53,969 nt of DNA from an archaeon (GTDB lineage Archaea > Nanobdellota > Nanobdellia > Woesearchaeales > GW2011-AR9), in the NCBI GenBank assembly GCA_023259115.1, contig JAHFQW010000001.1, positions 17,929 through 71,897 on the forward strand, given 5' to 3'. The notes below the pieces were generated by a model. It was not told where the DNA came from and searched no databases. It saw nothing but the letters and a program-made list of their open reading frames with translations. Below are positions 9,776 through 38,147 of the stretch, piece after piece (position 1 is the stretch's first letter; every line of letters starts with the position of its first letter). The position numbers and the translations under genes were made by a program.

Positions 9776-10678
9776 ATGACTTCAATACATTTCCTAAAGC
9801 ACACACTCACTCAAACATATCAATCTATTCGCACACACAAGCTAATAACCGCCCTATTAATACTAATACAAATAATTCTCATAACCACGCTCAGCATTGT
9901 ATTCTTTCTCTACTCCATCCACATTATCAACAACCTTAACAACATCATAGGACCAATACAACAAGCATCACAAATCAATCAAACCCAAACTACTCTCACA
10001 AGTGCACTAAGTATCTCTCAAAATTACCAAAACCTCACCCACAATATATTTATGCTAATAACCCTCACCAGCATAACATTCATTCTAGGAAACAGCATAG
10101 TATGGGCATTAACACATCAACTATTCACTAAACAGAAAACATTTCGCCAAAGTATAGTCGCAGTTATCCAGTGCATGACTAAATATATTTCCACAACTCT
10201 CATCATACTGTTACCATTTGCTTTAATTGTATACAGTCTAACCAACTACATTATTGCCAATAATCTCACCCCAGATTCACTCAATACCCTCTTTAAAGTC
10301 AGTGGCTACATTTTCTGCACACTATATCTAGTACTAATTTACTTCTACGCGTTTATCAACCAACCCAGCTGGCGCTTATATCTGCACAAAATCATCAACC
10401 CCTCCTCAGAAAATAAAGATAAAATTCAAAATGAAATTCAAAACAAAAATCAACATAAAATCACTCCCAGAACTTTTTTTGCACATCTCATAATCATTCT
10501 ATTTATCCACGCATTTTTAATTACATTAACCACCTATTTGATTTATCTATCTATCAACGCTAACCAAGAAATACTGCCCATCATTCTCACTTTTCTCTTA
10601 ATTATATTTCTCCCCCTGACTCGCATCCACTGGATATGTACACTAAATCAAAATATAACGAAGAGCGTAAATTATTAA
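9776..10678 (+). CDS. Multi-pass membrane protein, unknown function
   Basis: 300 aa with ~6 hydrophobic segments. Confidence 0.7.
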   Translation: MTSIHFLKHTLTQTYQSIRTHKLITALLILIQIILITTLSIVFFLYSIHIINNLNNIIGPIQQASQINQTQTTLTSALSISQNYQNLTHNIFMLITLTSITFILGNSIVWALTHQLFTKQKTFRQSIVAVIQCMTKYISTTLIILLPFALIVYSLTNYIIANNLTPDSLNTLFKVSGYIFCTLYLVLIYFYAFINQPSWRLYLHKIINPSSENKDKIQNEIQNKNQHKITPRTFFAHLIIILFIHAFLITLTTYLIYLSINANQEILPIILTFLLIIFLPLTRIHWICTLNQNITKSVNY

Positions 10679-10747
10679 TACTTTTTGACTCTTCGTTATA
10701 TTTGAAACGCCTAACAATCATATTAAAAATGTAGGCGTTTCATTATA
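10654..10747. repeat. TATA-bounded double-hairpin element (family A), 94 bp
   Basis: TATAACGAAGAG-23nt-CTCTTCGTTATA, then TGAAACGCCTA-18nt-TAGGCGTTTCA-TTATA. Confidence 0.7.
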
Positions 10748-10857
10748 ATAAAGAGACAAATAACTAACATTAATAATAATAACAACCAATAATAAGTAGA
10801 GCACACAAAATCATAGAGCCATAAAAAATCATCAAAAAGGTATAACAAGCATAAAAA

Positions 10858-11238
10858 ATGAATCAAAAACCAAAAATCATCATCCCCGACACCAACGCGC
10901 TTATAGCAATAGCAGAATACAAAATAGACCTCTTTGAAAATCTCAATCGCATCTGTGACTTTCCCTATCAAATCCAAGTTCTCCAAGCAACACTAGAAGA
11001 ACTCGAAAAGATAAAACAAGCATCATTAAAAAAATCACGCCTTGTTCAATTCATCAACCTATTATTAAAACAAAAGAAAATTGAAATTATCCCCCAAGAA
11101 GGCTATGTTGATGATCTTCTTGTTGAACATTCCTATCTCAACAACCATATTCTCACGCAAGACAACGCCCTCAAAAAACGCTTAAAAAAGCCATATTTCA
11201 CCATTAGACAACAGAAATATATCATCCTAGTTAAGTGA
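10858..11238 (+). CDS. PIN-domain protein (Fcf1/Utp23-like)
   Basis: IIPDTNAL...EELEK...VDDLL...LTQDNALKKRLK...TIRQ. Confidence 0.85.
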   Translation: MNQKPKIIIPDTNALIAIAEYKIDLFENLNRICDFPYQIQVLQATLEELEKIKQASLKKSRLVQFINLLLKQKKIEIIPQEGYVDDLLVEHSYLNNHILTQDNALKKRLKKPYFTIRQQKYIILVK

Positions 11239-11334
11239 GACAGAAGAGACAAAGAATTTTGCGATAACTATTCTAACCTCTCTCTAAAAACACAAAAGTT
11301 AAGTTTAAATAAACAAACAATTTACCTAAACCCT

Positions 11335-12675
11335 GTGAAAAAAGAGCGTGATGAAAAAACGAAAGTAAAAAGTAAAGAAATACAGACTATAGAAAAAAAA
11401 CTAACACCACCGCATTCAACACTACAAAAAATTCTAAAAAAATTTGGTCCAGGTTTTATAACCGGCGCATCTGATGATGATCCCTCCGGCATTGCCACCT
11501 ACTCTCAAACCGGCGCAAAATTCGGCTACACCCAACTCTGGACCTCACTATTCACTTTTCCATTCATGTCTGCCGTGCAAGAAATGTGTGGTCGTATTGG
11601 TCTTGTAACCGGAAAAGGACTTGCCAGCCTCATAAAACATCACTACTCCAAAAAACTATTATACTTTTGCGTATTTCTCCTCGTATTTGCTAATACTATC
11701 AATATTGGTGCAGATCTAGGCGCTATGGCCTCCTCCGCCCAATTAGTCTTTGGCATCCCCTTCATTTTCTGGCTTCTCTTCATCACCGCAACCACGCTCC
11801 TCCTCGAAGTATTCGTCTCCTATCAAGTGTACGCCAAAATACTCAAATACCTCACCATCTCCCTCTTCTCCTACATCGCTGTCGTATTTATCATCCAGCA
11901 AGACTGGAGCAAAATTATCCTCTCCACATTCATTCCCACATTTATCTGGAGTAAAGACTATCTCTTCAACATTGTCGCTATTCTTGGTACAACCATCTCT
12001 CCGTACTTATATTTCTGGCAAACCAGTGAAGAAGTAGAAGAACTAGTAGAACGCAAAGAACTCAAAACAATGGGCAGCGGTACACCTCATTTTCATCGCC
12101 AAGAAATCAAAGATATGCGCACAGACACCCTCATAGGCATGTTCTTCTCGAATCTCATTATGTTCTTTATCATTGCCGCAACCGCCTCAACTCTTGGAAT
12201 TCATGGAATCACAGAGATTCAAACCGCCAATCAAGCCGCTCAAGCCCTCCAACCCATTGCCGGCAATTTTGCCTACATCTTATTCGCCCTCGGTATCATT
12301 GGCACAGGACTATTAGCCGTCCCCATCCTCGCCGGTTCCGCCTCTTATGCACTCGCTGAAACATTAGGCATGCGCGAAGGATTATATCGAAAATTCAAAC
12401 AAGCCCATGGTTTTTATGGCATAATAACTATCGCCACAATCTTAGGGTTGCTCATCAATTTTACATCCATTCCTCCCTTCAAAGTATTATACTACACCGC
12501 CATTCTCAACGGCATCTGTGCTCCTCCTCTGCTATTTGTTCTCCTCAAAATATCCAACGACAAAAAAATCATGGGAAAATATACCAATAGCAAACTCTCA
12601 AATATATTAGGGTGGTCTATCGCCATAATTATGAGTATTGCCGCCATTGCCCTACTCATCGAGATACTACTTTAA
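11335..12675 (+). CDS. NRAMP-family divalent metal transporter
   Basis: GPGFITGASDDDPSGIATYSQTGAKFG and GTTISPYL motifs; ~11 TM segments. Confidence 0.9.
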   Translation: MKKERDEKTKVKSKEIQTIEKKLTPPHSTLQKILKKFGPGFITGASDDDPSGIATYSQTGAKFGYTQLWTSLFTFPFMSAVQEMCGRIGLVTGKGLASLIKHHYSKKLLYFCVFLLVFANTINIGADLGAMASSAQLVFGIPFIFWLLFITATTLLLEVFVSYQVYAKILKYLTISLFSYIAVVFIIQQDWSKIILSTFIPTFIWSKDYLFNIVAILGTTISPYLYFWQTSEEVEELVERKELKTMGSGTPHFHRQEIKDMRTDTLIGMFFSNLIMFFIIAATASTLGIHGITEIQTANQAAQALQPIAGNFAYILFALGIIGTGLLAVPILAGSASYALAETLGMREGLYRKFKQAHGFYGIITIATILGLLINFTSIPPFKVLYYTAILNGICAPPLLFVLLKISNDKKIMGKYTNSKLSNILGWSIAIIMSIAAIALLIEILL

Positions 12676-12746
12676 AAAAAAGAAAAACAAGTAGAGAAAC
12701 CAAAAGAATAAACCCAAACAAAAGAATAAACCAAAAAACCTCAAAC

Positions 12747-37157: not shown

Positions 37158-37196
37158 AGCAATATTTTACTTATTTTCATTTATAAATGTTATTAC

Positions 37197-37219
37197 CACC
37201 TGTCCAGTGTGTCCAGTGG
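37197..37219 (-). promoter_or_regulatory. CCACTGGWCACACTGGWCARGTG motif upstream of uvrA TATA box
   Basis: Minus strand reads CCACTGGACACACTGGACAGGTG, 9 bp upstream of TTTATAAA (37180-37187). Confidence 0.5.
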
Positions 37220-37283
37220 CTCATAAGCAAAAAATATCAGAAATCACCCTGTCCCAAAGCATAACACCTAGAAAAAAATAATT

Positions 37284-37311
37284 TATAGAGGACTTTGAAT
37301 AACGCTCTATA
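37284..37311. repeat. Family C repeat
   Basis: TATAGAGGACTTTGAATAACGCTCTATA; contains the TAG stop of the minus-strand gene ending at 37307. Confidence 0.7.
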
Positions 37312-38014
37312 TTCTCACAAAAATCTCTAAACTCTTCTTCTCAACCAAATTATCTTGCCGAAAACCTCGCTCCAGCAGTTTAGCTCCATTTAAATCTTGA
37401 CAACAATTAATAATAACCGCATCGCCCACTACAGAAACTCGCGCCAATTCATCATATAAAGCATCAAAATAAGATTCCCACACGGGAAAGACTACCGCCT
37501 CTCTTCTCATCCAATCAGTAATCTGCAAGCCGCTTGCAAAAAACACAGTCCCCTCTGAACACTTCATTTTCGAAACAAAATATAACAGATCATCAACAAC
37601 CCATGTACTCTTAAATTCATTATCTATTTCTCTTTTAATCACTTTAACACAACCCTCTTCTCGTAGACGATTAATCTCACTAGATATATTCACAAATGTC
37701 TTGAGCTCATTTGAATGATTAAAATAATCTTCACTATCAACCCCAATATAACTTCTTGCCCCATACATTTTTGCCAGATTTCGAATAATGTCTCCCTTCC
37801 CACAACCTACATCAATGAAATCTTTTCCTCTGACCAGTTCCTGCACCAAAAGACCAAGAGCACTAGGAGTAAGAGGACTACACTCATCATAAAACCTATT
37901 CGCAAAGAGCTTATCGGGAGCAGAGCACTCAGAATCATTATACATCGGAGCACTACCAAGAAGTCTTACATAAGAACTAGGAACAACACGTGTCAGATCA
38001 ATTTCAGGAATCAT
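37307..38014 (-). CDS. SAM-dependent methyltransferase-like protein
   Basis: FIDVGCGKG...YIGVD motif. Confidence 0.6.
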   Translation of the reverse strand: MIPEIDLTRVVPSSYVRLLGSAPMYNDSECSAPDKLFANRFYDECSPLTPSALGLLVQELVRGKDFIDVGCGKGDIIRNLAKMYGARSYIGVDSEDYFNHSNELKTFVNISSEINRLREEGCVKVIKREIDNEFKSTWVVDDLLYFVSKMKCSEGTVFFASGLQITDWMRREAVVFPVWESYFDALYDELARVSVVGDAVIINCCQDLNGAKLLERGFRQDNLVEKKSLEIFVRI

Positions 38015-38055
38015 TATAAACCCATTTCAAGCCATATTTATATTTTTTATGTGTT

Positions 38056-38147
38056 TGTGAATCTTTACGTTGATTTGTAAAATATTTACGCAAAGATTCA
38101 TATTAGAAATACGTTATTTTTTAAACTAATCAACGCATTTCTCTATA
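38056..38147. repeat. Degenerate family A double-hairpin element, 92 bp
   Basis: TGAATCTTTaCGT-17nt-ACGcAAAGATTCA, TATT, then AGAAATaCGTT-16nt-AACGcATTTCT-CTATA. Confidence 0.55.

Follow-up and report, generated by a model that had tools for sequence, protein, structure and literature searches.

Double hairpins in the window

The window, that is, the whole stretch of 53,969 nucleotides analysed here, belongs to a small Woesearchaeota genome of 1.57 Mb (assembly 96% complete). Between and at the ends of its genes, among them tuf and rpsJ, there are short elements in which two hairpins stand side by side. All seven stretches that an earlier note had pointed out are present and each of them folds as two adjacent hairpins; the DNA folds of the six shorter ones have z values of -6.5, -5.6, -7.2, -5.1, -6.6 and -3.2. 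The features are given below with the scores of R1, a covariance model made from 24 doublets; the term putative MITE is justified in the following sections.

10654-10747, + strand: putative double-hairpin MITE (R1 53.2 bits at 10651-10749; fold z -6.5)
15060-15203, + strand: putative double-hairpin MITE of family Q-P, host of a nested 50-bp mini-doublet (DNA fold; filled and empty copies compared)
15107-15156, + strand: nested 50-bp short-loop mini-doublet, inserted in the Q-P element at the TA of its linker (filled versus empty copies)
15331-15542, + strand: putative double-hairpin MITE of family O-G, host of two nested 58-bp mini-doublets (fold z -10.5)
15359-15416, + strand: nested 58-bp mini-doublet with CACA...TGTG ends, within the loop of the O hairpin (comparison with other copies)
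15435-15492, + strand: another nested mini-doublet of 58 bp, also with CACA...TGTG ends, in the linker of the O-G element (versus the uninterrupted linker in G000 C24)
19717-19810, + strand: putative double-hairpin MITE of family A-B, inserted in the last sense codon of tuf, at its TA (R1 match at 19714-19814; empty site in relatives)
20298-20345, + strand: single E-type hairpin flanked by TA at either end, one mismatch in the stem (R1 34.6 bits)
24158-24252, + strand: putative double-hairpin MITE of family D-C, TA on both sides (R1 90.7 bits at 24155-24256)
25797-25891, + strand: putative double-hairpin MITE of family D-C, TA on both sides (R1 91.1 bits at 25794-25895)
38056-38147, - strand: putative degenerate double-hairpin MITE with imperfect stems (R1 36.0 bits at 38052-38150; fold z -3.2)

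The first element is the sole representative of its sequence family in the genome, and the upstream ORF (9776-10678) runs 24 nt into it and finds its stop codon there. The two D-C elements are 95% identical to each other, and the last element is so degenerate that 4 of 200 shuffles fold equally well. The single hairpin at 20298-20345, which lies immediately 3' of rpsJ, was absent from the earlier list.

Abundance and covariation

Perfect inverted repeats with a stem of at least 10 and a loop of 12-28 occur 12 times in the window, compared with a mean of 1.1 and a maximum of 3 in 100 dinucleotide-preserving shuffles, so that the excess over shuffled DNA is confirmed. In the whole genome there are 342 inverted repeats with stems of at least 9, against 102, 97 and 102 in three shuffles, with a very large excess of stems of 10-13 bp. 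About 236 hairpins, grouped into 122 arrays, were counted, and the MITEs account for roughly 0.6% of the genome. R1 matches 115 double hairpins in it, which provides the further copies that the earlier note had predicted. The model recovers five of the seven elements listed there; the other two (15060-15203 and 15331-15542) are doublets into which smaller elements are nested. The scan of relatives was also positive, with related doublets in 50 of the 114 genomes of the same archaeal family.

The covariation of the stems is real. In an alignment of 32 doublets (3 from the window and 29 from other genomes) 93.8% of the cells are paired, versus 68.5% after shuffling, and the covariation score of 0.605 (0.173 in shuffled alignments) was reached by none of 500 shuffles; slid controls scored 0.03-0.12. 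Pairing is maintained at 88-98% in the doublet stems, and eight sequence families have a common frame, consisting of TATAG, a stem, CTTATTAG, a stem and CTATA.

Insertion at TA, nesting and movement

The opening TAG is preceded by TA in 30 of the 32 aligned doublets, and the closing CTA is followed by TA in 28 of them. The suggestion that TATA is the target thus holds only in that the target contains TA: as read from the sequence, each boundary TATA is made up of the TA duplicated at the target and the TA with which the repeat begins. The tuf locus illustrates this arrangement. The A-B element lies there between TA copies at 19717-19718 and 19809-19810, and the stop codon of tuf is now TAG, the first three bases of the element. 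In 13 relatives with linked tuf and rpsJ a T-run directly follows the tuf stop, and these sites are empty and have one TA. Excision of the element plus one TA from the present genome leaves GTATTATAA and the T-run, as at locus L004 of the relatives. R1 has a match at the tuf locus in this genome only, and none in the loci of 19 relatives.

Nesting offers similar comparisons within one genome, where linkers of A-B, N and Q-P exist both with and without a TA-bounded nested element. The mini-doublet at 15107-15156 lies between two TA copies (15105-15106 and 15157-15158), and exactly these 50 bp are missing on the contigs bearing other Q-P copies (uninterrupted at G000 C11 7876-7963 and C48 128738-128824). 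For the O-G element, uninterrupted copies are found at G000 C24 44863-44950 and 33346-33431, and the contigs of other copies have 6-8 letters in place of 15352-15417. No TA duplication was seen for the nested mini-doublets with CACA...TGTG ends, among them the one at 15359-15416.

Some copies have moved as parts of larger units or into genes. A composite of 328 bp with A and B arms at its ends is present in four copies of 95-98% identity, whose flanks are all different and have TA on both sides. An M-L insertion of 93 bp (91 + 2) lies in-frame within four ORFs, and surface subtilases gain a segment of 31 residues in this way; the orthologous proteases in G003 and G013 are without exactly that stretch of 31 codons. 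Orthologous empty sites are established in only one case at the DNA level and only one at the protein level. The earlier view that the elements are mobile holds. They also break the assembly at contig ends.

Relation to the ends of IS630-family elements

The ends of these elements resemble those of a known transposon family. In the genome G062 an element of 1107 bp (L102 928-2034) encodes a protein of 341 aa, with Pfam DDE_3 and HTH domains, which reaches 231.2 bits against NF033545 for the IS630 family, where the cut-off is 100. The TA-flanked repeats of this element and of others in G304, G024 and G108 match the C, D, L and M hairpins, and the I/J hairpins match these ends more loosely. Likewise, the ends of the D-C copy at 25797-25891 resemble the terminal repeats of the IS630-family elements L113, L102 and L215. 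Among 80 IS630 loci from metagenomes, the best matches are of 28/29 nt for C (L215), M (L260 and L231) and N2 (L257), and the L hairpin agrees in 20/20 nt with the other end of L260. Hairpin 1 and hairpin 2 thus correspond to the left and right ends of one insertion sequence. The unit that matches the terminal inverted repeat is the outer arm of the hairpin plus its loop, and the inner arms are absent at every IS end inspected. A cognate insertion sequence was sought and not found for A-B (the tuf copy), F-E (the commonest family), Q-P, O-G and T-S, as well as for G, H, K and two singletons, and the assignment of such families as MITEs rests on shared architecture and ends.

Taking these data together, the elements are very probably non-autonomous MITEs derived from insertion sequences of the IS630/Tc1-mariner family, and the double hairpins of about 94 bp appear to be gene-less miniatures of two IS630-type ends which have multiplied in the genome. 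Insertion at TA, amplification of a composite with new flanks, nesting, in-frame insertion into genes and near-identity to IS630 ends are supported directly at the level of sequence comparison. In the proposed anatomy, the left part of the doublet would be the left terminal inverted repeat (about 28-30 bp, starting with TAG), followed by its outermost 11-13 bp again in inverted form and then by a 3-nt linker, and the right part would be the mirror arrangement for the right repeat. The stem would thus consist of the tip of the repeat and its inverted copy, and the loop of what lies further inside the repeat. Covariation of the stems arises because both arms are copies of one terminal repeat, whose sequence varies from one IS lineage to another, and recognition by structure alone, as the earlier note had proposed, is therefore not required. 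An IS630-type DDE transposase may bind the outer repeats in double-stranded form and move the doublet in trans by cut and paste. Its source would be IS copies that this population has lost or that are missing from its assembly.

Searches for transposase and recombinase genes

No match to DDE_3 or to the G062 transposase was found in the 96%-complete assembly, and no IS630 transposase in it or in three congeners (0/4 genomes), which is weak evidence because multi-copy insertion sequences often drop out of metagenome bins. Y1/HUH (PF01797) and TnpB genes are also missing from this assembly; as there is no IS630, Y1/HUH or TnpB gene in it, mobilisation in trans is to be expected. The statement that the enzyme is not encoded in the window is thus correct and extends to the assembled genome. 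Within the order, DDE_3 genes are present in 21 of 201 genomes, and within the family in 13 of 114, where they were tallied in 10 of 50 doublet-bearing genomes versus 3 of 64 doublet-free ones.

Alternative explanations

The earlier note regarded the hairpins as a candidate new REPIN/attC-like system and attributed them to a recombinase or HUH transposase acting in trans. On the first of these readings, REPIN- or PATE-like hairpins would be recognised as folded ssDNA and moved by a TATA-targeting Y1 HUH transposase (RAYT or IS200/IS605 TnpA). The hairpin units do have conserved feet and variable stems, and a TA duplication and one extra TA borne by the element are indistinguishable from sequence alone. 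Besides, Y1_Tnp genes are common in the family (43 of 114 genomes, including 2 of 3 congeners), so that this enzyme class exists in the lineage, and in the family tally they occur in 24 of 50 doublet-bearing versus 19 of 64 doublet-free genomes. Nevertheless, the genome itself has no Y1 or TnpB gene, and at six Y1 loci in relatives no gene is flanked by double hairpins (one weak R1 match lies about 1.3 kb from a Y1 gene, at L278), so that the search for a RAYT/Y1 gene flanked by the elements ended without one. HUH elements are strand-asymmetric, whereas the entire doublet forms an inverted repeat, in which loop 1 is similar to loop 2 read on the opposite strand, and this overall symmetry argues against strand specificity. 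Arm and loop match the terminal repeats of IS630 DDE elements instead, up to 28/29 nt, and not the ends of HUH or tyrosine-recombinase elements, and both the proposed novelty and the proposed enzyme class have to be abandoned; the Y1 reading is very unlikely. An attC-like role, with the hairpins as substrates of a tyrosine recombinase, is of negligible probability. It could appeal to the structure-conserved, sequence-divergent nature of attC sites and to the only tyrosine recombinase gene of the genome, about 20 bp from an array of four hairpins. However, that protein is XerA-like (116.9 bits, below the 220-bit cut-off) and its gene adjoins a DNA-repair gene; as the 1.57 Mb contain 122 arrays, a single neighbourhood of this kind is not surprising. 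No cassette arrays or gene-plus-site units were seen in the genome, and the elements are scattered singly, nested and within ORFs.

The hairpins could also be RNA or regulatory structures kept by the host (terminators, stabilisers or small RNAs) rather than mobile DNA, as their strong covariation and the position of some copies in 3' untranslated regions, such as that after tuf, would suggest. This explanation is slightly less probable again than a Y1 transposase, given that G-U pairs are very few, both orientations are found, seven arrays lie within ORFs and the distribution among relatives is patchy. Of the arrays, 61 lie in tandem, 26 in divergent and 20 in convergent spacers, roughly in proportion to the 812, 246 and 240 spacers of these kinds, and the only Rfam matches in the window are two tRNAs. 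Secondary effects of the hairpins on mRNA ends are possible.

Comparison with known systems

Stowaway-like elements, the cyanobacterial Nezha and SM1/ISC1048 of Sulfolobus are MITEs derived from IS630/Tc1-mariner elements. The elements described here are similar to them in the TA target duplication, terminal inverted repeats common with an IS630-family element, lack of coding capacity, size of about 90 bp, many mostly intergenic copies and transposase acting in trans. They differ in that an inner copy of the last 11-13 bp closes each repeat, producing a pair of local hairpins rather than a single long fold-back, and in the presence of at least eight families of one frame, heavy nesting and a parent IS that is absent from the assembly. 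Correia elements have a TA duplication and 26-bp repeats. A bacterial IS630-related MITE, MITEEc1_IS630, is included in PMC11602168, a 2024 survey in which one Woesearchaea genome is among the most MITE-dense archaea; the window illustrates the appearance and origin of such elements.

According to what PMC10969869 describes, the Correia elements of Neisseria are also small, abundant, TA-associated and bounded by inverted repeats, lie beside genes and inside transcripts and encode no transposase; they are bacterial, have a single pair of inverted repeats and carry promoters and an IHF site, whereas for the present elements the family of the parent IS has been identified. The Rickettsia palindromic elements treated in the same source are inserted in-frame in protein genes and add a peptide segment, as one family does here (M-L, 31 codons, four ORFs), in an archaeal host and with a known parent IS. 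REP/REPIN-RAYT systems and BIMEs, as presented in PMC2817692, are likewise abundant palindromic units in mosaics, in both orientations and with the enzyme in trans, but here there is no RAYT gene, the ends match a DDE IS, TA is duplicated and the two tandem hairpins form one overall inverted repeat. Integron attC sites have in common with the doublets a conserved fold and a variable sequence; here, on the other hand, there are no integron integrase and no cassettes, and transposition is to TA sites. As copies of IS630-type ends, these elements belong to a type of selfish DNA that is already known, and no new recombination system is involved, so that a candidate ssDNA system is removed and replaced by documented IS630-derived MITEs in a DPANN (Woesearchaeota) genome. 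From the methodological point of view, terminal-repeat palindromes of diverging insertion sequences yield covariation of the textbook type although no RNA or ssDNA fold is under selection.

Inner arms

The near-perfect complementarity of the inner arms is not explained by transposase binding alone. They may have originated by fold-back copying at the birth of each MITE lineage, or may be kept because paired ends transpose better. That the closure has a function in the element, rather than being a by-product, is only a tentative idea, and a rather doubtful one. It could mark a subclass of IS630 MITEs needing cruciform or hairpin extrusion, or an internal junction of abutted ends, by which ends only about 90 bp apart might be brought into one transposase complex; alternatively, it could mark a regular fold-back-synthesis route of MITE birth. 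The inner arms thus pose a small, testable question about end pairing in very short Tc1-mariner-type elements. The inverted copy of the repeat tip has been kept in at least eight families from different IS630 lineages and in 50 of 114 related genomes.

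The double hairpins in the window and in the genome

The seven stretches of about 94 bp that an earlier note had described as double hairpins are all present, and each of them folds into two adjacent hairpins with stems of 10-13 bp and loops of 16-23 nt. The window (C47:17929-71897, from a genome of 1.57 Mb in 54 contigs, with 39% G+C and 96% completeness) holds 12 perfect inverted repeats with a stem of at least 10 bp and a loop of 12-28 nt, whereas 100 dinucleotide-preserving shuffles of it hold 1.1 on average and 3 at most. Genome-wide, 342 inverted repeats have a stem of at least 9 bp, while each of three shuffles yields about 100. 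There are 50 stems of 10 bp, 60 of 11 bp, 67 of 12 bp and 59 of 13 bp, where a steep fall is expected by chance.

A mismatch-tolerant scan of the genome gave 417 candidate hairpins, 249 of which group by sequence into 25 clusters with at least two members each. About 20 hairpin types, designated by letters, account for 236 units in 122 arrays, and both strands are represented. Several types are found in fixed pairs (doublets) joined by linkers of 3-6 nt: A-B, D-C, N1-N2, M-L, S-T, F-E and Q-P. From a MAFFT alignment of 24 doublets of eight families a covariance model was derived, which has at least 115 matches in this genome at E <= 0.01 (150 of 1814 candidates scored; some loci match both strands), an extension of the original seven to the whole genome. 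At least 50 of the 114 genomes of the archaeal family contain matches, as do at least 25 of its 58 genera (35 candidates scored per genome). Viral contigs searched with two hairpin patterns gave no match.

The hairpin repeats fragment the assembly, and eight arrays lie at contig ends, for example at both ends of C47 and on C12, C20, C30, C32 and C42. Among the contigs of four DNA runs from one study, none bridges an empty site for any window element; these contigs stop at the elements, where depth climbs, and the apparent skips derive from other copies, so they have no bearing on polymorphism or expression.

Common frame and covariation

The aligned families have a common frame consisting of TATAG, a stem, CTTATTAG, a second stem and CTATA. 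Covariation, which had been asserted from the window alone, is real. In a model-based alignment of 32 doublets (three in the window, 29 belonging to other genomes), which leans towards the model structure, the share of paired cells is 93.8% against 68.5% after shuffling. A covariation score of 0.605 compares with 0.173 after shuffling, none of 500 shuffles attaining the observed value, and slid controls gave 0.03-0.12. In helix 2, pairing amounts to 98.5%, and 10 of the 13 pairs are changed on both sides; G-U pairs are rare. An independent MAFFT alignment gave 80.3% paired against 61.5% shuffled; in the MAFFT alignment the inner part of helix 1 is misaligned between families (66% paired), which was corrected in the alignment to the model. 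Each stem pairs two copies of a terminal-repeat tip that varies among insertion sequence (IS) lineages; family-to-family covariation therefore arises without any selected fold.

Insertion at TA dinucleotides

Of the 32 aligned doublets, 30 carry TA ahead of the initial TAG and 28 carry it after the final CTA. The spacer between tuf and rpsJ provides the empty sites that the earlier note had proposed to look for: in 13 relatives whose tuf and rpsJ share a locus, the tuf stop codon is directly followed by a T-run. Removal of the element plus one TA from the spacer of this genome leaves GTATTATAA and the T-run, the same as in one extracted locus (L004). The element went in at the TA within the final sense codon, and its TAG now terminates tuf. 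The covariance model matches the tuf locus in this genome only, with no match in the loci of 19 relatives.

Within the genome, some doublet linkers are empty and others are filled by smaller TA-bounded elements; the two interrupted elements of the window are doublets of this kind, with smaller elements nested inside. A composite of 328 bp, made up of A, nested elements and a B whose loop carries an insertion, occurs in four copies with 95-98% identity at four different TA-flanked sites, which indicates that the outermost arms define the mobile unit.

Relationship with IS630-family insertion sequences

No mobilising enzyme had been recognised in the window, and the assembled genome likewise holds none of the families searched (no match to PF01797, PF07282, PF13358 or PF01609, i.e. 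Y1/HUH, TnpB, DDE_3 and DDE_Tnp_1). Of 201 genomes in the order, 21 have DDE_3 genes. The elements that hold these genes are about 1.0-1.1 kb long and flanked by TA, and their terminal repeats of 27-30 bp start in the manner of the hairpins described here. The element of the related genome G062 is as follows:

L102 928-2034: insertion sequence encoding a 341-aa protein with DDE_3 and HTH domains (NF033545, IS630 family, 231 bits, cut-off 100)

Its terminal repeat is the C arm plus loop, and its protein has no match in the present genome. Of two elements in genome G304, L113 has a left end matching D and a right end matching C, and L125 matches L. The element of G024 (L114) carries M at the left end (18/18) and L at the right end (22/23), and that of G108 (L112) resembles I/J. 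Among 80 metagenome IS630 loci the best matches (28/29 nt) are to C (L215), M (L260, L231 and others) and N2 (L257); in L260 the L hairpin also matches, 20/20, at the end opposite to M. These two-ended matches imply that hairpin 1 corresponds to the left IS repeat and hairpin 2 to the right one, the loops being inner parts of the repeats. Judged by their sequences, the elements belong to a known kind, the MITEs of the IS630 family.

Cognate IS were not found for A-B, F-E, Q-P, O-G and T-S (A-B and F-E were sought in 32 genome and 80 metagenome loci), and these families are assigned, as putative members, to IS630-type MITEs by the shared frame. Matches of 15-19 nt to E and F were rejected as chance, being positioned inside loci and not at IS ends. 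Long elements with hairpin arms at both ends were sought in the genome, and only chance pairs around ordinary genes emerged. The longest genomic repeats were rejected as insertion sequences too, as they represent duplicated parts of large surface-protein genes; the following pair is a recent duplication or conversion:

C21:26338-27654 and 45712-47028: 1317-bp segment, 99.6% identical, in two very large repetitive surface-protein genes

The earlier note had proposed a new REPIN- or attC-like system served in trans by a HUH transposase or a recombinase, a proposal that is not supported, as the ends match IS630 repeats and the genome has no Y1/HUH gene. Y1 genes (IS200/IS605-type) are indeed frequent in the family (43 of 114 genomes, including two of three congeners, with six matches in the congener G003), but they are absent here, and none of the six Y1 loci inspected in relatives is flanked by doublets. 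Among the 50 genomes with doublets, 10 have DDE_3 and 24 have Y1, against 3 and 19, respectively, of the 64 others, tallies given little weight because related genomes are not independent. As for a tyrosine recombinase acting on the hairpins, the genome has only one:

C15:44355-45065 (L277 1474-2184): tyrosine recombinase, XerA-like, below the family cut-off

A four-hairpin array starts about 20 bp upstream of it, but with 122 arrays in the genome such adjacency is unremarkable and is taken as coincidence; an attC-like role is thus not supported either. One doublet of this array contains an F-E doublet within its linker. A functional RNA also fits poorly: 61 arrays lie in tandem spacers, 26 in divergent and 20 in convergent ones, roughly in line with the numbers of such spacers (812, 246 and 240), seven arrays lie inside ORFs, and Rfam detects nothing in the window beyond two tRNAs.

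Inner arms and hairpin closure

The insertion sequences do not contain an inner inverted copy of the repeat tip, so hairpin closure is specific to the MITEs. The inner arm matches its own outer arm, not the opposite IS end, and the match is near-perfect across genomes; for example, a single position distinguishes M from L, and the difference is compensated within each hairpin. Fold-back copying at the birth of each lineage would fit these features, as would selection for pairing, which might serve to bring two ends only about 90 bp apart into contact. The four-arm plan is a modest architectural twist on IS630-family MITEs. No description of it was found in a limited literature search, which does not show that it is unpublished; one Woesearchaea genome had been flagged as MITE-dense in a 2024 survey (PMC11602168).

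Effects on genes

Together with TA, the 91-bp M-L doublet amounts to 31 codons that are open in one frame, and the same 31 residues are inserted in frame in four ORFs outside the window:

C47:136407-140009
C47:130077-133949
C47:123325-124189
C19:4072-4735

Two of these ORFs encode Peptidase_S8 proteins of 1201 and 1291 residues (large, subtilase-like surface proteins). The M-L segment is exactly missing from orthologues in the related genomes G003 and G013. These insertions resemble the in-frame insertions of Rickettsia palindromic elements, as described in a review (PMC10969869).

Inside the window, the ORF at 9776-10678 runs 24 nt into the element at 10654-10747 and finds its stop codon there, so its last eight codons are element-derived. 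Two D-C copies (24158-24252 and 25797-25891; 95% identical, in direct orientation) bracket a 1.5-kb gene pair:

24262-25038: enoyl-CoA hydratase
25035-25832: 2OG-Fe(II) oxygenase

Such an arrangement could permit the gene pair to be deleted or moved.

Mini-doublets and other features of the window

Mini-doublets constitute a second class of 50-60 bp, with the four-arm plan and loops of 4-6 nt, nested in larger doublets. About 50 more hairpins of this class are present genome-wide; those in the window are:

15107-15156: mini-doublet
15359-15416: mini-doublet
15435-15492: mini-doublet

Mini-doublets ending in CAAG...CTTG or TGC...GCA have TA on both sides, whereas those ending in CACA...TGTG show no TA duplication and may therefore move by a different chemistry.

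Two tRNA genes, presumably intron-bearing and as such suggestive of an archaeal host, were detected with Rfam, and ARAGORN found no tRNA in the window:

5225-5335, minus strand: tRNA gene, 111 nt
5423-5547, minus strand: tRNA gene, 125 nt

The window also encodes two eukaryote-type Ser/Thr protein kinases together with UvrA and UvrB (15653-17236, 20406-21662, 26808-28727 and 34308-37157).
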